DNA of 54,858 bases, from the NCBI GenBank assembly GCA_016202395.1, contig JACQOV010000013.1, positions 1-54,858 of the forward strand, in the 5' to 3' direction. Source of the stretch: Deltaproteobacteria bacterium (lineage in GTDB: Bacteria > JACQOV01). Both the position numbers and the translations under genes were made by a program. Below are positions 2,304-39,873 of this stretch, piece by piece. How positions within the stretch are numbered: the first letter of the stretch is position 1; every line of letters begins with the position of its first letter. Under the pieces are notes generated by a model. It was given only the letters and a program-made list of their open reading frames with translations, did not search any database and was not told the origin of the DNA.

Positions 2304-5126
2304 TTGTTGAGTTCCCAAAATCGCAAATTACTTTCTCTCCGAAATGTGATCCTGTTAGGCCTCATTGTAGCAGGCCTATCCTATGGGGGGGCTGTCTACC
2401 ATTTTCTGGCCCAAACCCCCGATTTTGGGTGGATACTGGATCCTCAGCGCAAGATCGGTTGGATCAACGAAGGGGGATCTGCTTCTCAAGCGGGTCTTCA
2501 GGTGGGGGATCAAATCGTGGCCGTAGGTGGAGAGCCTATTCTCAGCGCTCCAAGCTATTTTGAGACGGTCCGAAGACATCGGGTTTTAGGGGTTGAGGTT
2601 CCCATAGAGGTCGTTCGGGAAGAGGTCAATCTAGGCTACACTCTTGTGGCTCAGCCCCACGCATTTTCAAAGAACTCCAGATGCTCTTTTCTAGTCGTTG
2701 TTTTGTCTCTTTTACTTGCCCTTTTTATTCTTTTCAAGAAGCCCACGGAAAAGGCGGCCTTTTTATTTTCCCTTATTTTAGTCACGGGATCCGTTTTACG
2801 GATAGGGTTTGGGCATCTTTGGTATCTCTTGGAGCAGCCCTTTTTGAGTGTGGTTTGGGTGCTGGCAGGCCTTGCCGTTGTTCCTTTATCGCTTCACTTT
2901 GCTTGTATCTTTCCTCGTGAAAGGAGATTACTAACACGGAAGAAGTACCTTTACCCTTTGCTCTATCTTCCTTCCGTTGTATTGAGTTTAGTTGGACTCG
3001 TTCTTTATCACCAGGCCCTTGCAGTGGATCCGCTAAAGGGGGACGAGCACCTTGTTTTTCAGCGCATTTTCCGTCTCGGCATCGGTTTTCAACTGTATTA
3101 TCAGTCTTATCTTTTAACAGTTTTTGGCTTGTTCTTATTGAGTTTCTTCAGATCTCCGGCAGTTCGGGAAAGAAAACAACTGGTTTGGATCGTGGCGGCA
3201 TTGCTTTTTGCTGTTTGCAATCAAACCTATCTCTTTTTCCAGTTTCAAGCGCATCCTTCCCCCTCTCATCTGCTTTTCACCCTGCAGGATCTCACGCCAC
3301 TTCCGATGGTCTTCTTGTGGCCGTTTGCTATAGCCTTATCTATTTTTAAATACCGCCTTCTAGACATCGATCGGATTATCTCTCGAGGGATGGCATACCT
3401 GATGGTTAGCGCTATTTCAGTGGCCCTGTACCTTGGCTTTGTGGGTGGATTCAGTGGGTCGCTGGGGCAGGTGATTGATTTTTCCTCTTGGGGTTTGGTG
3501 GGGGCGACTCTGGTGATTGCCCTCCTCTTTTTTCCGATCAAGCAAAAGATACAGAAGGTCATCGATCGGCATTTTTATCGGGATCGGTATCGATATCAAA
3601 ACACGATTTATGAATTAAGCCAGCGGCTCACCACTTTCCTCAAAGAAGAGCCTCTGTTTCAAACGATCAACGAAACTCTTCAGAAAGCGTTCCCGATTTC
3701 TCATGTGACGACTCATGTTTGTTCTAAAGAAGAAGATCCGTCAAGTTTCCATGCCCTCCATGAATTTTTGCCGAAGTATCCCAAGGCCATTAGCCGTTTT
3801 GAGATTGAGAATCAGAGCTTGTTTGCTTCTCAGAGGGAGACACTTTTATCTCAGATGGATTCGCTGGGCGCGGAGCTGTTGTTGCCTTTTTTCTATGAAA
3901 GGAAGCTTCGAGGATGGATTGTTTTAGGGGAAAGAGAGGATGGAGATGTTTACTCCACAACAGATATCGAGCTCCTCACCACTTTGGCCGATCAGGTAGC
4001 GGTCGCTCTTCAGAATGCCTCTTCTTACCAGCAGATTGAACGGCTCAATGAGGATTTGCGAGAGAAGGTTCAAAAGATCGAGGTCCTTCAGGAGAAGCTA
4101 TTCCAGGAGAATGCCTCTTTGAAACAAGAGATTCAGCAGCAGTCTCATTTTTGGGAGATCGTGGGAACTAGTTTTGCGATGCGGGAGGTTTTTCAAAAAG
4201 TTCAGAAGATAGCTTCTACTTCTTCGTCGGTATTCATCCATGGGGAAAGCGGGACTGGCAAGGAGCTCATCGCGAGCGCCATTCATTACAATAGTTCTCG
4301 AAAAGATAAGCCCTTTATTAAAGTGAACTGTGCGGCCTTACCCGAGGGAACTCTGGAAAGTGAGCTTTTTGGGCATGAACGGGGAGCATTTACCGGTGCG
4401 GTGGCAAGGCGACAAGGGCGGTTTGAGTTGGCCGATAGCGGGACATTGTTTCTGGATGAGATTGGGGAGATCCCTGCGCATATGCAACTGCGGTTGCTTC
4501 GAGTGTTGCAGGAGAAGCAATTTGAGAGGGTAGGAGGGACGCAAACTTTAGAGACAGATGTTCGAGTGATTGCCGCCACCAATCGGGATTTAGAGGAGGC
4601 GGTGGCAGAGGGGCGTTTCCGGGAAGATCTCTACTTTCGTCTCAATGTTATTTCGATTGAGATCCCTCCTCTTCGGGAGAGGATGGAGGACCTGTATCCT
4701 TTGGCGCTTCATTTTATAGAAAAGTACAATCGGCAAACGGGTAAAGCCTTTTGCAAAATTACGGAAGACGGTTGGGACGTATTGAAGCGGTACCATTGGC
4801 CAGGGAACGTACGGGAGTTGGAAAACCTGATCCACCGAGCCATTGTCCTTGGGGAAGGAGAAGAATTGACTCTGAAAGATCTTTCCAGCGGTTTGAATAC
4901 TGAAAGAAGCGAAGGTTTTGATGCCCGTGAGGAGGCTCCGCATCCTTTGAATTACGAAGGTTTATTTCATCTCCCCTATTGGGATCAGATTCGTTACTAT
5001 GAAAAAATTATCCTCCAAGAGGCCCTCAAGAAGACAGGAGGGATTAAAGAAAGAACGGCCCGTTCTTTAGGGATTAGTCGATCCCACTTTTTCAGGAAAC
5101 TCAAAGAGCATGGCTTCCTTTCCTAG
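2304..5126 (+). CDS. Membrane-bound sigma54-dependent transcriptional activator (TM-PDZ-multiTM-GAF-AAA+-HTH)
   Basis: PDZ signature GSASQAGLQVGDQIVAVGG; many TM helices; GAF-like DIELLTTLADQVAVAL; Walker A GESGTGKE, GAFTGA, LFLDEIG, WPGNVREL; Fis-type HTH at the C-terminus. Confidence 0.93.
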   Translation: MLSSQNRKLLSLRNVILLGLIVAGLSYGGAVYHFLAQTPDFGWILDPQRKIGWINEGGSASQAGLQVGDQIVAVGGEPILSAPSYFETVRRHRVLGVEVPIEVVREEVNLGYTLVAQPHAFSKNSRCSFLVVVLSLLLALFILFKKPTEKAAFLFSLILVTGSVLRIGFGHLWYLLEQPFLSVVWVLAGLAVVPLSLHFACIFPRERRLLTRKKYLYPLLYLPSVVLSLVGLVLYHQALAVDPLKGDEHLVFQRIFRLGIGFQLYYQSYLLTVFGLFLLSFFRSPAVRERKQLVWIVAALLFAVCNQTYLFFQFQAHPSPSHLLFTLQDLTPLPMVFLWPFAIALSIFKYRLLDIDRIISRGMAYLMVSAISVALYLGFVGGFSGSLGQVIDFSSWGLVGATLVIALLFFPIKQKIQKVIDRHFYRDRYRYQNTIYELSQRLTTFLKEEPLFQTINETLQKAFPISHVTTHVCSKEEDPSSFHALHEFLPKYPKAISRFEIENQSLFASQRETLLSQMDSLGAELLLPFFYERKLRGWIVLGEREDGDVYSTTDIELLTTLADQVAVALQNASSYQQIERLNEDLREKVQKIEVLQEKLFQENASLKQEIQQQSHFWEIVGTSFAMREVFQKVQKIASTSSSVFIHGESGTGKELIASAIHYNSSRKDKPFIKVNCAALPEGTLESELFGHERGAFTGAVARRQGRFELADSGTLFLDEIGEIPAHMQLRLLRVLQEKQFERVGGTQTLETDVRVIAATNRDLEEAVAEGRFREDLYFRLNVISIEIPPLRERMEDLYPLALHFIEKYNRQTGKAFCKITEDGWDVLKRYHWPGNVRELENLIHRAIVLGEGEELTLKDLSSGLNTERSEGFDAREEAPHPLNYEGLFHLPYWDQIRYYEKIILQEALKKTGGIKERTARSLGISRSHFFRKLKEHGFLS

Positions 5127-5278: not shown

Positions 5279-5295
5279 TGGCACGCCGTTTGCAT
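5279..5295 (+). promoter_or_regulatory. Sigma54 -24/-12 promoter of the Rhs operon
   Basis: TGGCACGCCGTTTGCAT, perfect TGGCACG-N4-TTGCW consensus. Confidence 0.88.
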
Positions 5296-5331: not shown

Positions 5332-8300
5332 ATGGTTTCAAAAATAAAGAGCAATCGGTTTTTTGTTACAACTCATAAAATCTTCTCGTGGGTGTTGGTA
5401 TTTGCGCTTGTTTATGGGCCCCTACCAACTCGTGAAGCACATGCAAGCTTCAATTATTCTAGTGCGGCAGCCCATGCTTCTGATGAAAGTGCCTTAAAAG
5501 CCTCGAGCAACTCCGTTGGTTCTACATTGGTCGATGCCAAAGGGAATCTGACCTATTCTCTTTCCTTTCCTTCTATCCCTGTCGTTGCTCGGGATGGGAG
5601 TTCCCCTAGCGTTTCGGTAACCTACAACAGCGCCAATCATCAGGTGGATGGATTTATGGGGTACGGTTGGAACTTAGATGTTCCTTCAATTCGACGGATT
5701 GGTCCTGACGAAACACTTCCTCTACCAACCTACGGAACAGACGATCGTTTTAGTACCCCATGGGGAATCGTTGTTCCTATCGAAAATCCCGATCAATCGG
5801 AAACAGGGTATCGATTGATTTCAGGCCCTTTCGCAATTCACTTTACCTTCGATAGGGTAGAAAATGTTTGGACGGTACGCAACCTGGAGAATGGAACAAA
5901 ACAGATCTTCAGAGATATGAAGGGGAATCCTGCAACAAAACCCGATGTAACAGATCCTGCCTGCCAGTTAGAGCTCCCTTTAGGGGATAGTTCTTCAGGT
6001 TGCCCTCCCGGTAGAGAACTTTTGTGCGAAGCGCTCGATAATTTTGATCCAACCTCTTACGGCATGAAGGAACTCAATGAAGATCTTTTGGAAGAAGGGA
6101 CTATCGATTATGGAGCATTTCTTGAAGATTATGAAGACCAAGGGGGGGGGATAAGAATTTGGGACGTTCTTGTGACAGATGCCGCAAAACAGATTGAAGA
6201 AACACAGCATGAGCCGAGGGTCGGTGATCTGGATGGAACGGTTTTCGATGAAGGGGATATTGGGGGATCGGGCCCTACAAATCCGGAAGGTGTAGGGGGA
6301 GGAGTCGAAGGAGAAGAAACGAACGGGGTTGTTACTAAAAACCTTGATCCTACAGTGCAAGAAGACATAGAAAGATCTCGAATCACTCAGAATCCTGTTA
6401 TCTCTCCGTCTTGGGTGGATATTAACGAGTCCAATGTGCCCCTTGAGGCTAACAAAACAGCAGAATGGCAGATTCAAGAGATCCAGAATGGATCGAACTG
6501 GACCCGGCACTACTATGCTTCTTGCTCGACGGCTGATGGCAAATACAATGTCTTCCATTGGAATGGTGTGGCTTCGGGTGGATATGCTTTCGGAGATTCG
6601 GATGGGCCTTCGTTTGCTATTCGAGCCCTTTATGATCTTCGGCAAAATTATTACCCCATTTCAATTTCCAATCACACTTTTTCTCCTGAAATTCTTTCAG
6701 CTCTTGAATTGAGACCTGTAGTGGCATACTACGATTCTTCAGGTCCCTATCTGGATGAAGATTATCTTAATATGCGAATGAAATTTGTTTATGAGAGTGA
6801 TTCCGATGCTCATCATGCCCCACTTGTAGTCAAAATCAAATTTGAAACGGAGGAGGATGGAGAGACCGAATCTTTTCAGCCCCCTTTAGAGATGGCATAT
6901 ATTGAGAAACAAGAGAATTCAGGTACGGTAAAAGCTTTCTGTAAGGATCCGGTTGTCCTTCCATTTTTTAAACCTCTGAACACAAAAGGATTTAAAGAAG
7001 GGGAGACGGATGCTTACGAATGGGTTCGCTCTTCACGATCTTATTACAATCCGGAAACAGAGGATCCCTTGACGGGGACAATCCTCCCTTTTGCCTCACC
7101 GGAAGTTGATCCCGCCTTTATCGGGCGTCTCTATAATGGAGCGGGGTATTCCTTAGAGCTTACAGGACTGCATGAGATCGGAAACGTCGATTGCGAAGAG
7201 TCCCATTGCGAGTCAGGTGATCGCTATCAAGTGGAGGCTCCTAACATCTCTGCTCGATTCGCAGGGGCCCCTCTCTTTGGGGAAGAACAGGACAACCGTC
7301 CTGATTTTGTCATCGCAACGGAGATGGAAAGATTTACCTACGATCCGGACTATTTTGGATTTGAAGGGAGTGGAGAGTCGAAGAAGGTATGTCTCAAAGA
7401 CGGGGAGGGTTGCTGGGATTATTACGGGAAAAGCGGGACAACTTACGTAACCCAGAATGTCTATACAGGGGTAGGCATGATCGACCCTTACAGTCAAGAG
7501 GGCACTCCCTATGGTTCCTTGGAGGGGGGGCCTGTTAATTATGACCCTGGGCAGGTTCCAACCCCTTTTGTCCGTGTTTACTATGGCGTCCCTAAAAAAG
7601 AGCTCCCTCAAGATCTCATCTGTGATTCTGAAGAGAATACCCCTTGTAGCAGCCAAGACGATTACTTTGGAGGCGGATTTATTCTAGGCCCTTATCACTT
7701 TTTCCAAAACTTTTCATTGGAAGGGTTGAGTCAAAGGAACAAAGAGGCTGACGAAGTTTACAGCTTTATGGATATTGATGGGGATGGACTTGAGGAACCG
7801 ATCCTAAAAGAGGGGGAATGTCATATTGTTACCTCAAGAAATGGATTCAGCTTGAGAAAAAGTGATGTCCCCGAATGTGCTCAATGGGACGATGGCCAAG
7901 GAGCTATCGATGAAGCAGATTGCGTACAGCCCCAACCCCTTTTTGTGGGTCAGGACCGGCTTGTAGAGACGGAAAGCACAGGAATCGTGAGTCAAGAGTG
8001 TGATCCCGATGGGCGCTTCCGTTCCTCTTTCAATAACACCTGTAATGATACGGCGAGCCAATGTTATCGATTTTCAGGGCTTCCTTCTACGCCGATAGGG
8101 GCTCTTACATTGCCTGTACAAGATGATGAGGAACAGCAGAGCCAGAACTCCGGATTTGAAGGTTTTACTATCGATGGATTTAGTGGGGCTCATTGGATCT
8201 CGGGGAGCGTGTGTGACGGAAACGATTGTAGTTGGCAAGTCTGGTGGAATAATAGCCAACTCCTTTGGACTGCTTCCCAAGGATCTATCAAATATGATCC

Positions 8301-11300
8301 TTCCAAATCCGCCTTTTGTAGCATCCCTTCGAATTCCATTACAGGACCAGCCATTGCTGATCCCAGTCTCCGAGAGGCGTTGAAGTGTCCTGTGTTGGTA
8401 AAAAATGCTCCAGCCGCACTTCACCAATCCGCAGATAATCGCACCGTAATGACCTTAATGGATCTCGTCGGTGATGACAATCCTGATGTGGTCAGTACAA
8501 AAAGTGGTTCTGATTGTTGGAGTGTGAATGCCTACGATTACAACGCGATAGAAGGGAATTATATTGCCCAGTTTATTGAGGAGGGGGTCTGGGTTTATGT
8601 TCCACGAGATCCAGACGAGCCTGAGGATCGCAAGATCGCCACCCGTGAGGATGACGAGGACCACTGGTCCGGAGTTTTTTCCTTTGGTAGCCAGTCTTTC
8701 GCCTTTTCTCTAGGAGAAGAGTCAGGGGCTCGAATGTACTGCTCGACATGGGGGGAGTCTACCGATGAGGAGCGGAGCCCCGGTGTATCGGCGACATGGA
8801 CCTGTTACCCTTTTTATAAGGGGGAGGTGAACCCCAGCTATACCTGTGAGGGGGAGGATGCGGTGAGTTATTTCCATCCTGGGGAGGTTTTTCGTATCGA
8901 AGCCCCGACCATTGCACAACATGTGACTTGTAACGATTCAAATTGGTGCCCTGACGGAGATGCTGATGAGCTTCCCGGTGTGATGGATACCATTCGTGGA
9001 AGTACTCTGCTTGCCCCTGCGGATGTCAATGGGGATGGGATTGTAGATATTATTGATATTCGACCTGAAAAAGGGAATCACGCGAGTCATAGTACTTGGG
9101 ACAAAAAAGGGATGAGTGTCTATTTCGGTTGTCGCGATGATCAGTTTGAAGAGGGGGAAGACGATACTCGCTCTTGTGACCGTTGCCCTGAGGAGAGATT
9201 AGTCGGGGATGATGATGAGGGTTCTGGGACGAATGCCCAATGGGTAGGGCTTTTGACGGAGGTCAGTGACGGTTCCGGATTAAGAAAAGTTTTTGAATGG
9301 GCAGATGTCAAGGATTATCGCTTTGTTCCCCCTGCAGATCATTCTTACAAAAATCTTCTGGAAGGGATTCCCATTCTCAAGTCGGTGACGGAGTACCGTT
9401 TCGAGGATGGTTTAGAATCTTATCAAGTGAGTTCGGAAAATGTGCCGATTTATCGCACCTATGATTATTTGAGCTGCTTTAAAAATTCCAACGGTGTTTT
9501 TGCAGGATGTCCCGCAATCCGAGAAATTTCTAATTCCGGGGAGGGGAATCAGAGTGAAACCACAACCTATTATCTTTTGCAATTTCCAGAGGGACTGGAT
9601 GTTACCGATTATTCGGAACTCAATCCCCCAAGCTCTGCAGTGAGCACCGTTATTTGGCCCAGCTCTACGGTCCGAAAGCTTAGAGAGATCCAAGGGGCTC
9701 CTTGGGCTCAATCCGTTAGCGTAGGAAAGAAGACAGTCATTTGGGTGGGGGATATTCCAGAAGAAGATTATGATGTGATTCATGAATCGTATGGAGTGCT
9801 TGTATTTCCAGAGGGATCTACCACCGATCCGATCACTCAGGTAGGAACTTATCGTCGAGATAAAATTCTTTCCTTTCAACCGAAGAAAAGTATCAATATC
9901 CAGATAGAAGGGGATTATAAAGTGGTGCGGGAGAAACAACTCCTTTATGAAACTTTTTCTTCTTCAGACCCTAAAGGATTCGTTGGTTATTTAATGGCTA
10001 CCCGTCAGCTAGAGACCCCGACATCCGGAGGAGTCCCGTACTACCGAGATTTAACGGTGTACAACAAGTTGGACGATGGGAATGGTCATCTCACTCAGAT
10101 TGTCCCCAACGTTCGCTGTCGAGACACTCAATCTCTGAGCGCTACGATTACGTGTGATCCAAGCAGCAGCTTTTTATATCGAGACTACGATTATAATGAT
10201 GATGGCACTTTAAGATGGGTTCAAACCGTATCGGATACCCCTCTTTCCTCCGTTCAATCCCAGATAGAGCAAGAGTATGAGTACGATGGCTACGGCCATC
10301 TTACCCATTCAATCACAACCGTAAAGCACGGAAGTAGCGGATTAAGAAGCATGGAGGAAGAATTTATCTATGATGATTATTCTTTCAGCCCGGGATTAAA
10401 CATCGATAAAGAACGGTTCTTGGCGAAAGAGATCACGCGGGGTTCGGATATGGAATCAATGGTCCAGTATTTTGTATGGGATCGAAAAACGAGCAAAATC
10501 GCTTTTGAGTCCAGACTCTTCCTTGAGGGTCAAGATCCTCTAGGGGAGAGTTCTGGAGGGGAATCGGCAGAATCTTGTTGGGAAGATGAAAGTTGTAGAG
10601 AAGGAGGAACGGAGCGTGTTTATGATCATTTAGGGCGACCGGTTCGGGAGACTCAGTTTGTCCCTTTGGGAACGGATCGTCAAAAGGCGTTAAGCCAATG
10701 TTATTATTATTCGGGTGCTAGCGGCCCTCTCATGTGGAGTGCTTCAGTTTCGATTCGAGGGAGCAATTGTTGGGGAAGCCTCCCTGATTCAGACACCTTG
10801 GCGAAATACCCCTACGAAAAGGTTTATCGAAATTCCTGGGCTTCTTTTAAATCAGAACGATCCAGCGATGGCTCTTATTTGCTTCGGAAGCAGGCCCGAT
10901 TCGATGGCGACGGAGCTATCGTTGCTGAATCTTTGTGGGACGATTTAGAGGATTGGGATGCTGAAAGAGTGGAGTGGGCGTCTCAAACTCATGATTCTTT
11001 AGGAAGGATCACAGGGATCACACTCCCCACAGGTTATATGGCTCAAATCACCCCTGGATTAGAGGAGACGAGTGTTGCCGATCCCAATTGGGTTGCCGAT
11101 AGCTGGACCGGTTCCACCGGGGTCACTGTGGATGGAATGCAACGGACTTTCAAGGCAGGAATTGGAGGAAAATTGAGCCATGTTGCTTTGGGGACGAACA
11201 CGAGTCAAATGGTTGAAGCGGATTACGAAGATTACGATGTCGTAGGAGATGCAAATACCATTACGTTAAATCCTCTGTTTTGTTTACTCAACGGAGGAGG

Positions 11301-20405: not shown

Positions 20406-21530
20406 ATGGGTAAGCGATGGAGTTTCATTTTTGCGTTGTATTTTGGCATGGCTCATGCGGAGGTTCAGTATTTTCATTCGGATCATTTGGGATCGACGGC
20501 AGTCGTCAGCAATTCGTCTGGCGCGGTACAGCAAATAGAATGCTACACCCCTTTTGGCGAGAGTGTGAGCGGTTCACGTTCCACGTCCCATGCTTCATCT
20601 TTCACGTACACTAACCAAGAATTCGACCGCGAATCCACTCTCTATGCCTACGGCGCTCGGTATTATGATGCTGCATTCTCTCGATTTGTGAGTGTCGATC
20701 CCGCGCGCGATGGGCTCAATGTCTACGCCTATGTCGGCGGCAACCCCATCTCCCGCACCGACCCCACCGGGATGTATTTTAAAGTCGATACAGGAAATCC
20801 AGAGGTCGATGTCGCCATTTGGGATAAGATTACGGCCATTTTAGATGATGATGAACATCCCTATTATCCTGGCGTGAGCGCTCTTAATAACAGGAGTGAA
20901 GGAGTGTTTATTGGATCCCAGAGTCAAATTACAGAAGGATATTTGGATAGCATTGTCATGCATTTTATAGATCCGGAGGCTATGGGAGATTATGTTAATT
21001 TTCGACCTTTGAACGCAACGTTAATCTTACTTCGCACCTTGGAGATCATAAACGCAAAGCTAGGTTATGAATCGACAGAAGAAGGCATAAATCGAGAATT
21101 AGACGGATTGGAAAAGACCGTGTTAAACCTTGCGAATGGCATGCCCGACGGGATCTTTTTCTCAAGCTCTCTCGTAGAAGGTGACGAAGGGAAGACCTTT
21201 GCAACAATAGGAGCAGCATTCGATGCCGCTTTGGGTTCTTTCTTAGCCGCTCAGAAAGAGGGGAAAGTGACTGGGAATGGTGCACTTGCGGATAAGTATT
21301 CTTATGAGTTAATCGGAGGATTGTTGGCAAGTCCTGGAGGTGTGACGAAGTACCTTCAAGATCCCGGACCCCAACATCGTCAGACGGTACTAAACTATTG
21401 GCACGGAAACCCAGAGACAGGTGATCAGATGGGGTCGTATGCAGGATTTAAACAGAGAGGGGAGCAGCTTCCCCCCTTTTTGCAATGGATGGTTCGTCAT
21501 GATTTGATTCCTGATGCGGCACAAAAGTAG
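20406..21530 (+). CDS. Signal peptide + Rhs core + variable tip, cassette 1
   Basis: MGKRWSFIFALYFGMAHA|EVQYFHSDHLGS...ARYYD..NPISRTDPTG; 252-aa tip. Confidence 0.85.
   Translation: MGKRWSFIFALYFGMAHAEVQYFHSDHLGSTAVVSNSSGAVQQIECYTPFGESVSGSRSTSHASSFTYTNQEFDRESTLYAYGARYYDAAFSRFVSVDPARDGLNVYAYVGGNPISRTDPTGMYFKVDTGNPEVDVAIWDKITAILDDDEHPYYPGVSALNNRSEGVFIGSQSQITEGYLDSIVMHFIDPEAMGDYVNFRPLNATLILLRTLEIINAKLGYESTEEGINRELDGLEKTVLNLANGMPDGIFFSSSLVEGDEGKTFATIGAAFDAALGSFLAAQKEGKVTGNGALADKYSYELIGGLLASPGGVTKYLQDPGPQHRQTVLNYWHGNPETGDQMGSYAGFKQRGEQLPPFLQWMVRHDLIPDAAQK
20469..20561 (+). repeat. Near-identical ~93-bp Rhs core 5' segment, 4 copies (starting 20469, 22469, 23724, 24878)
   Basis: TATTTTCATTCGGATC(A/G)TTTGGGATCGACGGCAGT..TACACCCC.TTTGG.GAG repeated with only a few substitutions. 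Confidence 0.92.
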
Positions 21531-21564
21531 TGTAAACGGGGGTCAGGCTTCTGTAATTTTAGTA
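21528..21564 (+). repeat. Cassette-junction repeat TAAAYGGGGTCAGGCTT (copies at 21528, 22332, 24762)
   Basis: TAGTGTAAACGGGGGTCAGGCTTCTGTAATT; TAGTGTAAATGGGGTCATAAATGGGGTCAGGCTTCGGTAATT; TAAATGGGGTCAGGCTTTGATAATT; each at or just after a stop codon. Confidence 0.8.
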
Positions 21565-21593
21565 AGAAACATATCCATAAAAGGAGGGATATC

Positions 21594-22328
21594 ATGAAAA
21601 TGGGCAAGAAAATAACAAAAAGGATCTGTTCGATTTTAACGGCGAGTATGTTGATGGGATCCGTTCCTGCTTCGGCAACGAGAACGATCCCGGTGCGTGG
21701 AATTAACGATGCGATCGTATCGGATATTTTGGGGAATCTACGAGGAGGAGGATTGGAAGCGCTTGAAGAAGAGTATCCCGCATTACGTAAGGCACAGGAT
21801 CAGGTTCAGATTTTTGGGGTGACTCCGTCCACTGTGAAGCATTTTGCGGAATCGGTTGAGGAGTGTGGGATATTAGGAACGGCGGAGCTGTTTGAATGCG
21901 CGGGTTATCGTGTTTCTCGGCAGAACACCGATGTGACAACCCTCCACATGTTCCGAAGAGAGATAGAGTTTCCGGAAACGGAAACGCCGATTCTCTACTT
22001 GGTCTTTCTTAAGATGGCTAAGGAGATACAGCAGGGAATTTCCGATCCGGATATTCATCGTGATTTTATTGAAAAAGTGGCTTCGGCTTTAGGGAGAGCC
22101 TTGGAGGATGGAACGCTTCTCACTTCTCAGGTTACTTTGGATGGCAGTGGGTGTTTAGACCTAGAGTGGCTCATCTGTGGCGGTTTGCTTGTTGCGGCCG
22201 CATTCGGATGGTTCTTGGGGTGTGTTTTAGACGGAGGCGATTGTTTAGATGTGTTCCTGGAATTTCTCGGAGCCATCATGCTTGCTTTCTTATTTGCCTG
22301 TGGGTTGAACGATTGTCTCTCAGCGTAA
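21594..22328 (+). CDS. Exported hypothetical protein with a Cys-rich hydrophobic C-terminal hairpin
   Basis: RBS AAGGAGG; signal peptide ending ASA; C-terminal two hydrophobic helices with 6 Cys. Confidence 0.75.
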   Translation: MKMGKKITKRICSILTASMLMGSVPASATRTIPVRGINDAIVSDILGNLRGGGLEALEEEYPALRKAQDQVQIFGVTPSTVKHFAESVEECGILGTAELFECAGYRVSRQNTDVTTLHMFRREIEFPETETPILYLVFLKMAKEIQQGISDPDIHRDFIEKVASALGRALEDGTLLTSQVTLDGSGCLDLEWLICGGLLVAAAFGWFLGCVLDGGDCLDVFLEFLGAIMLAFLFACGLNDCLSA

Positions 22329-22396
22329 GACTAGTGTAAATGGGGTCATAAATGGGGTCAGGCTTCGGTAATTCGGTATTTATTAAGGAAGGGTGC

Positions 22397-23575
22397 ATGA
22401 AACGGTGGCTTGTAAGCATCGGATGGGTGGGTGTGGTTGCGTGGCAGATGGCCTCGGGGGAGGTGATCTATTTTCATTCGGATCATTTGGGATCGACGGC
22501 AGTCGTCAGCAATTCGTCTGGCGCGGTACAGCAAATAGAATGCTACACCCCGTTTGGTGAGACTGTCATTGTGAGGGAGCGCAGCGACCGAAGCAATCTC
22601 CCAACCAACCATCTCTACACCAACCAAGAATTCAACCACGAATCCACTCTCTATGACTATGGCGCCCGGTATTATGATCCTGCGCTTTCCCGATTTGTGA
22701 GCGTCGACCCCGTTTTGGATAGTCCCAACCCTTACGCTTATGTTGCGGGTAATCCGGTTCAGTATAGGGATCCAACAGGTGAGATTCGAGATGACATTGA
22801 GAGTATTTACGACTACGCATCAGGTATGGCGACTGGCTCTGATCAGCGCACATTTATAGTTGAAGTCGATGCTTCAGGGTTGTGGGAGCAGAATGATTAC
22901 CTTGGCGAAATAGCAGGAGATGATTATGTAGAAGATGCAAAAGCTGCCGTTAGACAGATTGAAGGTAAGGCAGGACTAGAGGCCATTCATCCTCATGGTG
23001 CTGGAAGTGATGAATGGTATTGGGTGACTCATGATGAAAAACAAGCTGGGGAAATAGCAAGTCGTTTTAGAAAAGATGTGTGGAGTGTAAATAGTGCCGA
23101 GGTTACAAGTAAATCTCCGCAAGAGGTTAGTGACATTGTTGCGAATTTTTCGAAGAAGCCAATGCACTCTCTCATGAAGGCTCAGAAAGCGCGTTATCGT
23201 AAGCTTGCGGAAAGAGCTGTAGAAGGGGTCACTGATCCTCAGGAGCGGATGGCCATACGGCGTGCTATAGCGAAAAGATCAAGGTTAGCAATGCGTAGAA
23301 CTGCAGAGGCCCTGATAAAAAACGGTTTCTGGAAAGGTGCCACTGATATTGGTAAGAAAGTAGTCCCTGGGGTGAGTATCGCTTGTGGTTTGCAGTGTTT
23401 AGCGGAAGGGGATGCTTTTGGTGCATTTTTGAATTTTGCGGGGGAATTTCCTCCTCCGTTTGGTCCGGCGGCCGATTATTTTTCCATAATATATGCAGTG
23501 GAAGGGGATCCGAGTTATCGTTCTCCTTATTTAGTTGGAAATGGATGTCCTAACAATCGCTGTCATGGTTTCTGA
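22397..23575 (+). CDS. Signal peptide + Rhs core + variable tip, cassette 2
   Basis: RBS AAGGAAGG, ATG 22397; MKRWLVSIGWVGVVAWQMASG|EVIYFHSDHLGS..NPVQYRDPTG; 264-aa tip. Confidence 0.87.
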   Translation: MKRWLVSIGWVGVVAWQMASGEVIYFHSDHLGSTAVVSNSSGAVQQIECYTPFGETVIVRERSDRSNLPTNHLYTNQEFNHESTLYDYGARYYDPALSRFVSVDPVLDSPNPYAYVAGNPVQYRDPTGEIRDDIESIYDYASGMATGSDQRTFIVEVDASGLWEQNDYLGEIAGDDYVEDAKAAVRQIEGKAGLEAIHPHGAGSDEWYWVTHDEKQAGEIASRFRKDVWSVNSAEVTSKSPQEVSDIVANFSKKPMHSLMKAQKARYRKLAERAVEGVTDPQERMAIRRAIAKRSRLAMRRTAEALIKNGFWKGATDIGKKVVPGVSIACGLQCLAEGDAFGAFLNFAGEFPPPFGPAADYFSIIYAVEGDPSYRSPYLVGNGCPNNRCHGF

Positions 23576-23589
23576 TTCTTTTGATGGGT

Positions 23590-23616
23590 CTGGATTCCCG
23601 CTTTCGCGGGAATGAC
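23590..23616. repeat. REP/dRS3-like palindrome
   Basis: CTGG-ATTCCCGCTTTCGCGGGAAT-GAC; matches the ATTCCC-N8-GGGAAT pattern. Confidence 0.75.
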
Positions 23617-23663
23617 CATAAATAACTGGGGGTCCTTGCGTGTTGACTAGTTTTTTAAATTCA

Positions 23664-24764
23664 ATGATACGATGGAGTTTCATTTTTGCGTTGTGTTTTA
23701 GCATGGCTCATGCCGAGGTGATCTATTTTCATTCGGATCGTTTGGGATCGACGGCAGTTGTCAGCGATTCGTCTGGCGCGGTACAGCAAATCGAATGTTA
23801 CACCCCGTTTGGTGAGATTGTAACCCCTCACCCCTTCGGAGGTGAGGGGGCTACCCCTTATCTCTATACCAACCAAGAACTTGACCGCGCCTCGGAGCTT
23901 TACTACTACGGCGCCCGTTTTTATGATGCCACACTAAACCGCTTTCTTTCAGTAGACACGTATTTTGATGGCCTCAATCCGTACTCCTACGTACACAACA
24001 ATCCAATTTTACTCACCGATCCTACAGGAAGCACGAGCAAATGTTCCGGTTTCTTTTCTTGTTTCGATCTAGGAGCACAGGAGCAAGCGGATTCTCCTGG
24101 ATTTGGTCCTGGCAATCCTGTCGATATGAATGAGGATCTTCCAGGACGGATAGGGTACGCTCTAGGTTCTGCCTTGTTTTTTGGTCAGAAGTTATTGACG
24201 CGAAATCCCGAAGGAAAAGGTGTGCCCGCGATTCCAGTAGGTGGACCGACCTCGAGTGGCATCACCTGGGGAGGTGGACCCACCGCAGGAGCCGTTGTTA
24301 CAACGGCCCAAACCTTAGGATTCATAGGATTCACGAGCGGGGCAACAACAGACCCACTCCGTTCAACCTCTTACGCAACCTCCGAAGGGAGTGAAGGATC
24401 AGGGAATCAAGAAAGCAGGCCGAAAATTTATACAAGTCTAGGCAAAAGCGAAAGACTCCGCTTTTGGGATCCCGTTGAACCGGTGCAAGGGGCTCAAGAC
24501 ATTCAGGGAGAGGGAAAATTTGTAGTAACACAAGATCCAGAAACTGGCCAGCTTGCTTTGTATTTGGGTCGTGGAAAAGATGTTTATCATAATTTTTTGG
24601 CGCCTCGTGAAGCAAATATTATTGATGCTGGAATGTACCGACTTCTTCCGGAAGGAGAAGTGCAATTATTTGATGTATCTGGTCGCTATGGTTACAGTAC
24701 GCAGAGAGGGGAAATATCAGAAGCTCTAGGAAGATCGTTAGACATAACTTTTACTTCAGAATAA
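23664..24764 (+). CDS. Signal peptide + Rhs core + variable tip, cassette 3
   Basis: MIRWSFIFALCFSMAHA|EVIYFHSDRLGS..NPILLTDPTG; 244-aa tip; alternative start GTG 23640. Confidence 0.83.
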   Translation: MIRWSFIFALCFSMAHAEVIYFHSDRLGSTAVVSDSSGAVQQIECYTPFGEIVTPHPFGGEGATPYLYTNQELDRASELYYYGARFYDATLNRFLSVDTYFDGLNPYSYVHNNPILLTDPTGSTSKCSGFFSCFDLGAQEQADSPGFGPGNPVDMNEDLPGRIGYALGSALFFGQKLLTRNPEGKGVPAIPVGGPTSSGITWGGGPTAGAVVTTAQTLGFIGFTSGATTDPLRSTSYATSEGSEGSGNQESRPKIYTSLGKSERLRFWDPVEPVQGAQDIQGEGKFVVTQDPETGQLALYLGRGKDVYHNFLAPREANIIDAGMYRLLPEGEVQLFDVSGRYGYSTQRGEISEALGRSLDITFTSE

Positions 24765-24805
24765 ATGGGGTCAGGCTTTGATAATTCGGTATTCAGGGAG
24801 AATGC

Positions 24806-25867
24806 ATGAAACTATGGTTTGTAAGCATCGGATTTGTGGGTGTGGTTGCGTGGCAGATGGCCTCGGGGGAGGCGATCTATTTTCATTCGGATCATTTGGG
24901 ATCGACGGCAGTTGTCAGCGATTCGTCTGGCGCGGTACAGCAAATAGAATGCTACACCCCTTTTGGTGAGAGTGTGAGCGGTTCACGTTCCACGTCCCAT
25001 GCTTCATCTTTCACGTACACCAACCAGGAATTCGACCGCGAATCCACTCTCTATGACTACGGCGCCCGCTATTACGATCCTGTGGTGGCCAGATTTCAAT
25101 CCAGCGATCCCGCAATGGAGGATCGATACACTATCGATCCTCAACAGCAAAATCCTTATAGTTACGTTAGGAACAATCCCCTGCGCTACATCGATCCCGA
25201 TGGACGTGTGCTAAAGGAAGTGGCGAAATACACCGCGGACCAACTTCCGATTCTTGACAAAAATCTCATGGATGCCCAGGAAGCTTTAAGGTATCTATTC
25301 GAACAAGAGCAGATACTTGCGGATCGCCTAGCAACATTATTAGAACATCCCAACATTCGCATCCTCGAAATGGAAGCACAACATCCACACTTGCGAGGCC
25401 AAACCGACTTATTAGAGAAACTTGTAGCGGATGAGGCCAAAAGTGTTCAAGAACGACTTATCGGAACGAAGAGGTGGATATGGTGGGTGCGCTGGAAAAT
25501 GATAGCGACGAAGTTCACGAGAGGAGCTACCCAAGGGTTGCAGCGCGTTTCATCCGCTTTGGCAGAAGGTGTAGTCACCACGGAGGCCACGGCCACAAAC
25601 ACAAGCGTCGCAGAGGGGGGAGCGGCAGCTGCTCGAGCAGCCTCCGCACTAAAGGGTACCGGAATCTTATCCGTAGCGTGGACTGGACTGAGATTGGGAT
25701 CTACGGGGCTTGCTGCACTCCAAGCGATTGAATGGTACACGGAAGCGAATGAAGCGCTGCAGTGTGACCCTGGAGCTTCTTGCCCCGGAACCTCAACGCC
25801 GCTTCAAGGTCCAGAAGAAAGAATAAGGTTGGGCACTAGCCCCGGCCAAATCTCACCTTATGAGTAA
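24806..25867 (+). CDS. Signal peptide + Rhs core + variable tip, cassette 4
   Basis: RBS AGGGAG; MKLWFVSIGFVGVVAWQMASG|EAIYFHSDHLGS..NPLRYIDPDG; 220-aa tip. Confidence 0.87.
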   Translation: MKLWFVSIGFVGVVAWQMASGEAIYFHSDHLGSTAVVSDSSGAVQQIECYTPFGESVSGSRSTSHASSFTYTNQEFDRESTLYDYGARYYDPVVARFQSSDPAMEDRYTIDPQQQNPYSYVRNNPLRYIDPDGRVLKEVAKYTADQLPILDKNLMDAQEALRYLFEQEQILADRLATLLEHPNIRILEMEAQHPHLRGQTDLLEKLVADEAKSVQERLIGTKRWIWWVRWKMIATKFTRGATQGLQRVSSALAEGVVTTEATATNTSVAEGGAAAARAASALKGTGILSVAWTGLRLGSTGLAALQAIEWYTEANEALQCDPGASCPGTSTPLQGPEERIRLGTSPGQISPYE

Positions 25868-25881
25868 AGAACAGGAAAGCG

Positions 25882-26541
25882 CTAGAACTGATAGCCCACC
25901 AGAATGGAGAAGAGACTCGTTCGGATATCCAGCTGGTCTTGGACGCCAAAAGCCTTGGCAAGATCCAGCAGCTCCTCATTCACTAAGGAAGTAAACCCTC
26001 GCTCATAGCGAAGGTCGAAGGTAATGGCTCCGGGGTTCCACTTCTTTTCCACTCCAAAATTCAGGACCAATCCAATCTCTCGTTCATTGACAAAATCGTC
26101 AAGCTGGAGATTCGCAGGGGCCCCTTCCATGTGCACGTTGGCCTTCGTTAGGAGGTTAAAGGTGGGGCCTATTAAAAGGTAGGGGGCTAAATCTTTTCCA
26201 TAACGGAAATCCCATCGGGCGAGCACGGGAAATTCCACGTAGCGAAGATCGGCTGCAATCTTGTACGATTGATCCAAAAGCTCCAGAGGGTGTTCTCCTC
26301 CACGCACGCTGTAGAGAATCTCCGGCTGAATAGCAAGGTTTCGGTTCAAATGATAGGTGAGAGAAAGGCCTCCGGCAAAGCCGAGTTTCGTGGAAATATT
26401 CCGCGTTCCGTTTTCCACAATGCTGATAGGGTTTATCCCCAGTTTCACTCCGTAGTTTAAATCCCCCGCAGGGGTCACAGAGGCCTGGAGGACTAGAGCG
26501 CTAAGAAATAGGATCGTAAATTTGAACCTTCTTTGTTGCAT
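25882..26541 (-). CDS. Outer membrane beta-barrel protein (porin family, PorT/OMP_b-brl_2-like)
   Basis: Signal peptide, YGVKLGIN, IQPEILYSVRG, YVEFPVLAR, DLRYERG, C-terminal VGYQF. Confidence 0.85.
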   Translation of the reverse strand: MQQRRFKFTILFLSALVLQASVTPAGDLNYGVKLGINPISIVENGTRNISTKLGFAGGLSLTYHLNRNLAIQPEILYSVRGGEHPLELLDQSYKIAADLRYVEFPVLARWDFRYGKDLAPYLLIGPTFNLLTKANVHMEGAPANLQLDDFVNEREIGLVLNFGVEKKWNPGAITFDLRYERGFTSLVNEELLDLAKAFGVQDQLDIRTSLFSILVGYQF

Positions 26542-26554
26542 CCTCTATTTTCTA

Positions 26555-26571
26555 ATGCAAGATTCGTGCCA
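26555..26571 (-). promoter_or_regulatory. Sigma54 -24/-12 promoter of the porin gene
   Basis: Minus strand TGGCACGAATCTTGCAT, perfect consensus. Confidence 0.85.
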
Positions 26572-27562: not shown

Positions 27563-30500
27563 TTAGGGAGGAGGAAAATCAGCCCATGGGCACGAGGCAT
27601 CCATCAAGCAAGGATCGTCACTCAATTTTCCTGTCAAGAAATAGTACCCCATCTGGTTGATTAAGAACGATCCGACATCCGAAGGGATATCCTCGTACGG
27701 CTCTGGGAGCGGGATCTTGTACTTGGGATCGGGGCCGTTGAGGCCATGGTAACCGTCGGTATCTCCGATAAGAGCGAATCGAGCCGAGGTTTCCACAGGG
27801 GTGGAATTGCCGACCTTCGTGGGAGGGACAGGGCCTGGGACGGAAGCAGGATCGTTCTCTACATGAACGATCCGACGATCGAGATCGGGGACATGCGCAG
27901 TCTTCGGCGAGCAGAGGTTAGCCCCTTGGGGGCTTGCGGGATCGATGGGTGAACACTCTGAAGGAGGCTCTTCAGAGTTTTTTCCGTTGGGGATCCAAAG
28001 AATCGGGTCGACAATGGCCGGAACCAGGTCGTAACAAGGGGTTGGCCTTCCTTCCTCGTCCAAAGGACAAAGGGTTCCATTTTCATCATAGGTGTTAGCG
28101 CAATCGGGGCTCCCTTCCATACAGATCTTTCCTTCCGCGTTCACATACGCAGGTCCATCCACCATCGCTCCTCGATAGATCCCTTTTCGAATGAGCTCTT
28201 CGTTCGTTGCTTCATCGATGGTTCCGATGATCCGAGGCGTCGCCAGTTCTGTGCTAATAGGAACGAAATTGTCATAAACCGTGGCTACGTTCACAACCCC
28301 TCGATTACTGGGAATCTCCTCAAACCGTCGGTTGTGGATCACGAAGCCGGTTTCAGGATCGTTCGTTGGAAGATCGGCGGTAAAGTAATGGTTCAGATAG
28401 TTGTGAGGGCTAATGGGATCGAGCAGATGTTGCCCCACGCTTAAGAAACGTCGGAATCGCGGGCTGTTTCTCTCCATGCCGTACCCTCGAATGGGTGAGG
28501 TGAGATCTCTCTCCAGCAGGATGTTTTGATTTTCATCCTTTAGGATGAGATGAAGTGGGTCTCCGATATCGGTCGCGACTGAAACACGGAATCTTCCGTC
28601 ACTGTGGATTCGGACCTGTTTTTCCTCTCCATTACGCAGATTTTTGAGGGTGGCGTAGCCCCGCGGCATCTGCGAGGTCAAGCTTGTATCTTTAAAATAC
28701 TCTAAATGGGAAAGATCGGCCTGCTTGGGGTCATCCGGATGAACCATACGAGTCAAATCAGAGAAGGTTAAGAAGAGCTGGTACTCCTCTCCTTGGAATC
28801 GGCCGGCCACACAAGGGGTGCAGATGGGGGAGAAGCCGATCTCCCAATAAGGCTCTTGACGGGTGCGAACGGCGATATCGGTGAGGATCGCTCCGCCGGA
28901 AAAAGAGAGGCTCGCTTCGGCCTCGGGGATGAGCGGGCCATAGATGTTAGCGCCAATGCTTCCTAGCGAGGATCCGGAGAGATGAAAATCAGGTCCGAGG
29001 TCGACGACCCCATCCTCATTAAAATCGCACTCGAAAGGAGAGGGCCTGCCTTTGCTGTCCTTCCCATCGCATTGGAGGATTGTTTGGATGAACATCTGTT
29101 GGTCGACTGCCGCTTGAATCATATTGGCCCAGGTGTGAAAGGGGTTTGTGGTATCCATCAACTTGCCCCCGGAGGCGATCTCTCCATGGAGATCGATCCC
29201 TCGAGCGCGTCCTTCTCCACCGACCACCTCTCCGAGCAGCGGACAGTGCCAGAGTTGATCCATGAGATCGGTCATCTCGGTAGAGGCAGGGATCTCCCAG
29301 ATATGTTTCACATCGGGACAGAACCGTGCGATCTCCCGGATGACGAGCTCTTTCAAAACGGTAAAAAGGATCTTCTTTAGCGCGTCGAATGCTTCCGGAA
29401 GTTTCTCACGAATGGCGTTGAGGTCTAATGTTTTTCCCGAGGCTGCAAGCTTTTGCGCGCAAGTTTTTTCTAGCTGTTTCGTGAGCGTATTTCCAGTAAA
29501 TAGATCGATTCCTAGAATCTCATCCATCCCTTGAAGGTCCTGGATCAATCGATCACAAAAGAGGGAGGGATCCTCTTCGGATCTCCCCGACGAAAGTTCC
29601 TCGAGTAGTAGGAGGGCTAAATCCTCGATTGCGGCCTCCGAGCAGGTTTCCCCGAACTGTTCCATACAGTCCTCATCCGATAGATCCAATCCTTGGGCGA
29701 TTGTCTCTTTGAAGAGAAGGTCCAAGAGATTTAAAAAATCCTCATCGCTACAAAGTCCCAGGTCGCCGCAGATGTAATTCACGAAGTTCTCAGGACGGAG
29801 ATTGTCCATGGGGCCATGGTCCGGGAAGTCCATTCCGCAGGTCGCGAAGCCCAACCGAGCGAGCGGCCCTGCGAGCAAGGTTGCTTTCACACGGCTCGCT
29901 GAGAACCCATGACCAAAGAAGATCACCGGAAAAGGGGGCTCGATGCCATGCTGCGGCCTTGCTTTCGGGATGGAGCAGACAAAGACCACATCCGTATTCT
30001 TATAAGCGGCTCGCTTACCATTCCGAAGATCGATGCCGGTCGCGTAATCAACGAGGAAGACCCCTTCCGTAGAGGGGATCTCTGGGAAGTCGGTCGATTC
30101 GGTAAAGGAGGGGGAATTAAATGTTCCGTAGACGAAGTAATCGACGTACTCCACCATAAGCTTTCCAGAGGCTCTTCCCCCGGAGAGGCTCCCTTTGGAT
30201 AGGAAGAAAAAGAGGGTGGTCGCCAACCGTTGAAACGGTTCTGCCTTGAGGATGTAAGGACTCCCGGTCTCCCCCCCGAGCTCTTCAGGAGCCTGAAGAT
30301 CACTCAGCGAATTAATCTTGGCGGGGAACTCCTCTTTAAGGAGTGCCATCGGGCCCTGGCCCCGAAGCCCTTCCAGCACGGCTCGGACGTACTTCGTTTG
30401 AGTTCCTGTGGTGTATTTCCAGGCGATGGCGATCTCCTCCGCTTCGACTCCAAACTTCTCAAGATGGGGAAGAGCCTGTTTTAGAGATTCTGTTTGCGTG

Positions 30501-34020: not shown

Positions 34021-34044
34021 GGTGGCCCCCCTTTTTCTGCTTTG

Positions 34045-34123
34045 CCCCCTCATCCTAACCTTCTCCCCAACGGGGAGAAGGGATTTTTCCTCTCCCCCTT
34101 GGGGAGAGGATTGAGGTGAGGGG
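34045..34123. repeat. REP-like double-hairpin intergenic element
   Basis: CCTTCTCCCC/GGGGAGAAGG and TCCTCTCCCC/GGGGAGAGGA hairpins enclosed by CCCCTCA..TGAGGGG. Confidence 0.75.
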
Positions 34124-39816: not shown

Positions 39817-39856
39817 GTCATAAACCCCCATTCTGGTTTGGTGCACCTGTTATTTT

Positions 39857-39873
39857 TTGCAAGATCCGTGCCA
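39857..39873 (-). promoter_or_regulatory. Sigma54 -24/-12 promoter of the lipase/barrel operon
   Basis: Minus strand TGGCACGGATCTTGCAA, perfect consensus. Confidence 0.87.

Follow-up and report, generated by a model that had tools for sequence, protein, structure and literature searches.

The 54,858-nt contig JACQOV010000013.1 of an uncultured groundwater bacterium (the whole stretch analyzed, hereafter the window; contig C95 of a 1.9 Mb bin of 108 contigs that is 89% complete) carries an Rhs locus between positions 5332 and 25867. All genes of the locus lie on the forward strand, in the order protein 1, protein 2, cassette 1, a 244-aa open reading frame (ORF), and cassettes 2, 3, and 4. Judged from its sequence, the locus encodes a putative cocoon system of the Tc/Rhs type; where its YD shell would run on into the closing Rhs core, membrane-targeting segments appear always to intervene. 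For six shells of this genome, as for one foreign homolog, the break falls at one common structural boundary, and predicted Sec-type signals are present on all of the parts, so that any assembly must occur beyond the inner membrane if these signals act as such. The cassettes, which number ∼58 in the genome and carry 52 unrelated tip families, are independent genes by their sequence. In the best reading, to which we give an even chance, shell and core-payload would be exported separately by Sec and assembled in trans outside the cytoplasm.

Protein 2 (P0002; 14807–20305, 1832 aa) consists of a signal peptide and a TcB/TcC-like YD shell. A sequence-only reading of the same DNA had described it as a shell that stops before the Rhs core in a Cys motif, a membrane segment and an arginine run, and this description was correct: the RHS repeat model PF05593 was found on the chain and the core model TIGR03696 was absent. 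The last shell strand (RRIATFE, residues 1774–1780, positions 20126–20146), which is predicted to pair with the first strand of a cassette, is followed by a C-terminal tail (20153–20305) made up of a GGCSG motif, a 19-residue spacer, a membrane segment, RRRRRS and the stop codon. The end of the protein thus reads ...RRIATFEFED-FDYPHVDIGGCSG-(19 aa)-LLFLLLPLGFVIVL-RRRRRS.

Three core-less shells were found in the genome (P0002 on C95, P0067 and P0068; 26–43% identical). In all three, the shell breaks off a few residues past an RRI(A) strand that is invariant, and one or two membrane segments follow; the membrane segment with its RRRRR tail recurs in P0067. Residues R1774, R1775 and I1776 are invariant in the three shells and in P0066, a foreign core-less homolog (4/4); the sequences of P0067, P0068 and P0066, like that of P0002, end before a core. 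On contigs C95, C29 and C28 alike, the core-less shell is preceded by a long protein in which shell and core are fused (3/3 loci). The six long proteins, three core-less and three fused, have signal-peptide-like N-termini by inspection. PF05593 matched P0001 (protein 1), P0002, P0067 and P0068, and SpvB was present in four of the six shells, together with TcdB_toxin_midN in P0068. A profile built from P0002 and three relatives gave TcdB2-TccC3 as its best solved match (E 2.4e-22), and it aligned residues 107–294 of P0002 to residues 33–229 of YenB, at the N-terminus. Searches of the Protein Data Bank with the single sequences of P0001 and P0002, and with a two-sequence profile of the fused proteins, returned no match. 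Read in this way, protein 2 plus one cassette would equal a TcB-TcC cocoon cut at a new place.

The shell had also been called surface-anchored, and this part of the earlier claim was left without support. MYXO-CTERM-type signals combine a Cys motif, a membrane segment and an Arg cluster, and are processed by myxosortases of the CPBP family (10.1101/2023.06.07.544157). The tail of protein 2 has the same three-part layout, but its Cys-to-membrane spacer is ∼19 residues, and among the curated CTERM models the best scores stayed below every cut-off (Loki-CTERM, 13.3 bits with a cut-off of 19.9; MYXO-CTERM, 7.1 bits with a cut-off of 20). On its own, a membrane segment with RRRRR behind it would retain the shell in the inner membrane. 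Tails with a Cys, a membrane segment and a basic cluster occur in five proteins of the genome, which has one CPBP/Rce1-like protease gene (C62:27452–27736).

The genes downstream of protein 2 supply what the shell lacks. As had been proposed, each of the four has a signal peptide immediately ahead of the core, and a tip unrelated to the other three (TIGR03696, 71–78 bits), and the TIGR03696 match begins 19–37 residues from the N-terminus. Cassette 1 (20406–21530; 77.9 bits) has a signal peptide at residues 1–18 (AHA/E), a core at residues ∼19–123 and a tip of ∼250 aa with one paralog on contig C28. Cassette 2 (22397–23575; 74.2 bits), with an ASG/E site, has AGGAAGG 5 nt before the ATG at 22397, and its frame is open from 22352. 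Cassette 3 (23664–24764; 71.4 bits), with AHA/E, is open from a GTG at 23640, and cassette 4 (24806–25867; 73.8 bits), with ASG/E, has GGGAG before its ATG. A block of ∼100 nt (YFHSDHLGS...YTPFGE) is near identical in the four cassettes (20469–20570, 22469–22570, 23724–23825 and 24878–24979), and the signal-peptide regions are of two types, one in cassettes 1 and 3 and the other in cassettes 2 and 4. The shared block, the two signal types and the unrelated tips suggest that the cassettes have exchanged sequence with one another, by gene conversion or by shuffling.

Between cassettes 1 and 2 lies the 244-aa ORF (21594–22328), a non-cassette gene that the sequence-only reading had omitted. It has a signal peptide and a Cys-rich hydrophobic C-terminus, it matched no Pfam or NCBIfam model, and its one weak paralog (24% identity) is on contig C52. 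The C28 paralog of the cassette 1 tip has no neighbor like it, and the 244-aa ORF may or may not serve cassette 1.

The same arrangement was found throughout the genome. TIGR03696 gave 61 matches; 58 fall in frames of 246–456 aa, and the remaining three in long frames (2485, 3061 and 3192 aa). Our own core hidden Markov model found 59 short ORFs, of which 58 were analyzed after one 105-aa fragment, cut by a contig end, was dropped. Signal peptides were called by a rule-based scan of our own in the 57 cassettes (of 58) that have at least 12 residues before the core. The segment ahead of the core is short (median 27 residues, range 18–64, n = 57), and no shell repeats were present in the cassettes. 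It contains an uncharged run of at least 10 residues in 56 of 57 cassettes and a small-x-small site at most 2 residues from the core start in 54 of 57, and with the chosen start its n-region is net positive in 48 of 57. A 10-residue hydropathy of at least 2.0 was reached by 55 of 57 cassettes, as against 1 of 28 and 0 of 48 ordinary Rhs proteins in the same window of residues. An ATG stands ahead of a typical n-region in 54 of 58 cassettes, and Shine-Dalgarno-like motifs precede 38 of 56 starts, compared with 26% at random positions. The arrangement of signal peptide and core is thus real and far beyond chance. Because the signal peptides are diverse in sequence, we take the feature to have been kept by selection and not to reflect recent copying.

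The cores themselves are well conserved, with most residues, the first aspartate among them, invariant or almost so: S30, P49, G51, R85, D98, Y107, Y109 and P114 are invariant, and D119 of the DPxG motif is kept in at least 90%. A profile of the cassettes matches the cores of TccC3 and YenC2. The cassettes are spread over 25 contigs, and in the core tree all 16 cassettes of C28 form one clade.

The tips, in contrast to the cores, fell into 52 clusters among 58. A Pfam scan of the 58 tips detected no toxin family, and helix-turn-helix (HTH) domains in 1 of 58. Their length varies little (233 ± 27 aa, range 122–277, n = 57), which fits a size limit set by a container. The next cassette follows directly in 25 of 58 cases, leaving no room there for an immunity gene; seven cassettes are followed by no ORF, and no recurring family was seen among the frames downstream of the other 25.

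In protein 1 (P0001; 5332–14745), a signal peptide, an SpvB-like N-terminus and a large divergent shell with RHS_repeat matches precede a core and a hydrophobic tip. The same break had been said to occur here within one polypeptide, and two membrane-like segments with a WRWKR loop indeed stand at that point. This membrane hairpin (13075–13230, placed by hydropathy between shell end and core) comprises a PCG motif, membrane segment 1, the WRWKR loop and membrane segment 2, which ends VYA/R and looks like an internal signal peptide. The core that follows is of a divergent type (RFFMNDYRGN...DPSG; 13630–13884; TIGR03696 at residues 2823–2901, 54.8 bits). A hairpin at the shell/core junction is present in all three fused paralogs (C95, C29 and C28), and with it the two halves would lie on one side of the membrane in cis, too. 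In a core-domain tree (MAFFT and FastTree), the three fused cores form a long-branched clade of their own apart from all cassettes. In each of the three fused proteins, DPxG is immediately followed by a strongly hydrophobic tip of several segments (residues ∼2903–2981 in P0001); among the cassette tips, just 8 of 58 contain any segment of this kind.

Shell and cassette sequences are exactly complementary: the shells end ...RRIA-x6, and the cassettes begin at the residue that normally comes next. In 48 foreign full-length Rhs proteins, a like ...RIA... shell end stands before the core. A complex of P0002 residues 930–1790 with cassette 1 residues 19–140 was then modeled with our own alignments in three runs, together with three controls. 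The interaction prediction score from aligned errors (ipSAE) was 0.88 (0.87–0.89 in three runs) and the best of the three controls gave 0.00, a result that speaks for complementarity; among solved complexes 58 of 80 attain the mark applied, and among mismatched pairs 2 of 110. The runs agreed in at least 78% of contacts. The predicted interaction that the sequence-only reading had asked for was thus obtained for one cassette, cassette 1, whose first strand docks on the last strand of the shell: shell residues 1774–1780 contact cassette residues 19–27 with errors of 0.8–1.0 Å, and in the model this contact is the predicted strand continuation expected of an intact cocoon. The predicted local distance difference test score (pLDDT) of the cassette partner was 75–77 in the complex and 29 when an unrelated protein replaced the shell. 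AlphaFold2 gave cassette 1 alone a mean pLDDT of 56, with values below 50 for residues 102–126 around the cleavage motif.

Under assembly in trans, shell and core-payload would cross the inner membrane separately. In the fused form, segment 1 would stop transfer and segment 2 would restart it, so that shell and core-payload would lie on the same side and the hairpin could be cut by signal peptidase. In the split form, the same two products would come from two genes, with the shell gene stopping after the first membrane segment. Signal peptidase would free the first strand of the core, this strand would add to the last strand of the membrane-tethered shell, and the core would then plug the cocoon and cleave off the payload. 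A few shells could in this way be loaded with many payloads, and no DNA rearrangement would be needed. Separate Sec export and assembly in trans had already been suggested for this locus. The Sec-type signals on both halves, the cassettes' own starts and a complex model that passes its controls agree with the suggestion; assembly in trans is what we infer from them.

Several observations weigh against this reading. The fold has been solved as a single chain in Tc BC and Rhs proteins and the model used our own alignments, so that a pass shows complementarity and not binding and may reflect likeness only. Invariant shell residues make up 38 of 97 at the modeled interface and 85 of 764 elsewhere, but these interface positions are largely YD-repeat consensus, and the enrichment, which does not discriminate, was not used as support. 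P0066 ends RRIGSVDLDD plus 35 residues with no membrane segment, and an anchor is therefore not essential to the core-less state. To our knowledge, the loading of a preformed shell after translocation has no precedent, known cocoons having core and cargo on a shell-forming chain. The tips are mostly acidic (median pI 5.1). Only two of the three core-less shells (C95 and C28) are followed by cassettes, and the stoichiometry is ∼58 cassettes to three core-less shells.

This last ratio, with the cassettes scattered over many contigs, is also what would be expected if the signal-peptide-core-tip proteins were stand-alone secreted effectors, in which the core is only a self-cleaving pro-domain or export helper and the core-less shells are something else, e.g., adhesins or empty cages. 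Two findings in other genomes point the same way. In genome G040 (86% complete), a signal-peptide-core-tip gene stands alone, no RHS repeat being detectable at E <= 0.01; this favors a shell-independent role and counts against loading of a shell (PF25023 was too insensitive, having missed the shells of the present genome). In a protein-cluster search, short core-plus-toxin proteins were common in many phyla, in generic clusters only. We nevertheless regard stand-alone effectors as a serious but unlikely explanation. The core by itself is not confidently folded, either alone or in the shell-swap control; the cassettes start exactly where the shells, which preserve an invariant RRIA end strand, leave off; the upper bound on tip length is tight; and fused paralogs whose junction is interrupted in the same way show that in this lineage shell and core act jointly.

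The cassettes could also be ordinary orphan rhs modules, i.e., silent displaced 3′ ends activated by recombination, whose hydrophobic N-termini are relics of the second hairpin segment. Such modules, according to a review, lack trafficking modules and act through recombination, and arrays of them are the textbook arrangement (PMC4436062). The fused genes do have a signal-peptide-like second segment before the core, and the near-identical block of the window cassettes does indicate recombination among them. We consider this origin improbable all the same. When the cassettes were compared by blastn with the six long genes, fused or core-less, at their junction or 3′ parts, no similarity was detected, so that there is no DNA homology to allow a cassette to be swapped into a full-length gene, and the fused cores are a separate clade. 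The cassettes' own starts, with ATG before the n-region and Shine-Dalgarno-like motifs, and the lack of room for an immunity gene after at least 25 of 58 of them do not suit displaced 3′ ends. Genuine orphan-like frames look different: of 20 short core frames at eight loci from seven Omnitrophota genomes, 18 were orphan-like and two ambiguous, and those 18 start inside shell-end sequence common to the main gene and have no signal peptide. One short Rhs frame in an unrelated 5.1 Mb genome (G022:C6, 1941–3038, reverse strand; 366 aa) starts like a signal peptide, continues with ∼50 residues of shell end common to the neighboring longer gene and goes on into the core; short Rhs genes that bear a signal may arise more than once.

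An assembly artefact, a frameshift or decaying pseudogenes in a metagenome bin are highly improbable: the bin is fragmented and incomplete, and per-run metagenome contigs break at the conserved core blocks, which are repeats, but three loci have the same design in diverged sequences (26–43% identity) with the membrane segment and RRRRR tail recurring in P0067, the foreign homolog P0066 breaks off at the same boundary, 57 of 58 cassettes run intact to a stop codon, and in four groundwater runs of one study the contigs match the stretch with no indels at the shell/cassette junction, one of them spanning 20187–20498 and so bridging the protein 2 stop and the cassette 1 start.

The arrangement is not unique to this assembly either, and the fear that it might be was not borne out. 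A profile of signal peptide plus core was searched against 1.84 billion representatives, and the best 150 were sorted into 37 from this genome and 113 foreign ones. Among these best 150, at least 39 foreign proteins passed a strict signal-peptide-core rule, one of them named as a TNT-related glycohydrolase toxin from a Candidatus Omnitrophota metagenome-assembled genome; 26 foreign proteins had the core near the N-terminus and failed the rule, at least eight of which look like signal peptides by eye; and 48 had internal cores preceded by a ...RIA... shell end, as in full-length Rhs. Core-less shells had been expected elsewhere next to such genes, with a CTERM anchor. One foreign core-less homolog was found (P0066; 1834 aa, 39% identical in the C-terminal part used as query), and it has no membrane tail. 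Scans of genome and metagenome contigs with the shell alignment returned only generic Rhs proteins, with 22–30% identity in segments of more than 100 residues. In number of core matches the present genome stands out, with 61 as against at most 18 in each of 301 Omnitrophota genomes and at most seven in each of 40 others.

The best structural relative of the shell is the Tc BC cocoon (TcdB2-TccC3, YenB/YenC1-3). The Tc cocoon, too, comprises two polypeptides, and one B subunit takes alternative C subunits: three TcC proteins encoded at distinct loci are packaged by YenB (PMC11067744). A choice of payload among proteins, which had been put forward here as interchangeable payloads, is thus already known in principle from YenB (PMC11067744); for the present shells, shell-core complementarity was modeled for cassette 1. 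An N-terminus of the SpvB/TcdB mid-N type is present here, as in the Tc relatives. The split, however, lies at the shell/core boundary rather than between TcB and TcC; what would be exchanged is core and cargo only (∼350 aa) and not a half-shell of ∼680 residues; and here Sec signals are on all parts, with a membrane segment at the junction. The TcA models PF18276 and PF03538 had no match in the genome, a weak result since neither matched any control genome.

Rhs proteins linked to a type VI secretion system (T6SS), with their orphan arrays, share the YD shell, the TIGR03696 core, the DPxG boundary, hypervariable tips and short core-tip arrays 3′ of long genes. In contrast to them, the cassettes have signal peptides and their own starts, have no homology to the long genes and are mostly without immunity genes. 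The absence of a T6SS, noted earlier for the window, now extends to the 89% complete genome, in which neither PAAR (PF05488) nor the TssC sheath (PF05943, VipB) was found; both models matched control genomes, and CdiB was not searched genome-wide. Orphan rhs-CT modules are defined by a missing start or trafficking signal and by 5′ homology to the main gene, and neither feature was found in the cassettes.

WapA is a Sec-exported, single-chain YD-shell toxin, like the bacterial teneurin-like proteins. The latter resemble the present system in an N-terminal Sec signal, an exported YD cocoon with an enclosed C-terminal toxin, and envelope anchoring (PMC13018210). In both WapA and the teneurin-like proteins, however, there is a single polypeptide with the core in cis and there are immunity genes, whereas here core and payload are a separate exported protein or lie past a membrane hairpin. 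Compared with these families, then, three defining features are missing: a core on the shell chain, an immunity gene for most cassettes, and a T6SS or the canonical TcB/TcC split. The novelty lies in the cut site, the minimal cargo module, the membrane junction and the export by Sec. In the open full-text literature, subscription journals and supplements being outside the scope of that search, no paper was found that describes signal-peptide-core genes together with core-less shells.

A fuller scenario can be offered tentatively, and we hold it to be rather doubtful as a whole. A tethered, core-less BC-type shell would be loaded with any of the ∼58 Sec-exported core-payloads to give a Tc-like cocoon assembled outside the cytoplasm, and the hairpin of the fused proteins would be a fission intermediate. 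The hydrophobic tip of the fused protein might do the membrane-inserting and translocating job of TcA. The lack of immunity genes and the unrecognizable acidic tips would then indicate targets in a foreign host or prey and not in kin. The genome has three secretin genes; a folded cocoon of BC size seems too large for a secretin.

The Rhs locus is probably transcribed from a sigma-54 promoter. A consensus TGGCAC-N5-TTGCA with no mismatches (5279–5294, forward strand) lies 38 nt 5′ of the protein 1 start at 5332, and the whole 1.9 Mb genome has 20 such perfect matches. On contig C28, perfect sites stand 5′ of the fused Rhs gene (C28:29951) and of the leader ORF of a nine-cassette array (C28:15045). 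Directly 5′ of the locus is the gene of a sigma-54 enhancer-binding protein with PDZ, GAF, AAA+ and HTH_8 domains (2304–5126, forward strand; Pfam Sigma54_activat, 2.3e-73), which from its position and the promoter at 5279 is likely the regulator of the locus.

The window otherwise resembles an ordinary chromosome of a diderm, with an outer membrane protein (OMP) β-barrel gene and genes of serine hydroxymethyltransferase, NrdR, riboflavin synthesis and RelA/SpoT. The closest named homologs of the serine hydroxymethyltransferase, at 72–75% identity, belong to metagenome-assembled genomes labeled 'Deltaproteobacteria' or Thermodesulfobacteriota. Two further perfect sigma-54 sites, both on the reverse strand (26556–26571 and 39858–39873), lie directly 5′ of the OMP β-barrel gene (25882–26541) and of a 1407-aa gene (35623–39846). 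The latter encodes one of three paralogous large secreted proteins (1260, 1407 and ∼1300 aa, 33–48% identical) without a Pfam family, located at 27563–31345 and 35623–39846 of the window (both reverse) and at C85:9779–13621; one of the three is sigma-54 driven. The two in the window adjoin the Rhs locus, together with a PD40-repeat protein (31342–34053).

Some further features were noted around the cassettes. A short palindrome, ATTCCCGC-TTTC-GCGGGAAT, lies at 23586–23616 between cassettes 2 and 3. The position bin that contains it had a summed contig depth of 1,258 to 21,336 in all four metagenome runs, compared with ∼5–15 nearby, and a similar element, CCCG...CGGGAATGAC, precedes two other cassettes (C5:1265 and C30:7445); the palindrome may be a widespread repeat or a terminator. 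On contig C22, a 1161-aa secreted M36 fungalysin-type metallopeptidase (C22:650–4132) is directly 5′ of a lone cassette (C22:4192–5283). Contig C30 has a 170-aa remnant (1773–2282) that keeps a cassette-type signal peptide and has lost the core. Two small frames between the cassettes of C30 (4832–5086 and 6799–7050) are presumably antitoxin-like, resembling Phd/YefM and ribbon-helix-helix proteins by eye.

Rhs, Tc and teneurin cocoons have been understood as containers of a payload borne on the closing core's own chain. If shell and core-payload are indeed separate exported proteins, (i) payload loading would become testable with two purified parts; (ii) toxins could diversify by a route that needs no DNA rearrangement; and (iii) a minimal cargo adaptor of ∼110 residues would be at hand for engineering cocoon-based protein delivery. 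An uncultured, small-genome bacterium that devotes ∼3.6% of its 1.9 Mb (58 genes, mean 372 codons) to one effector family is an outlier.

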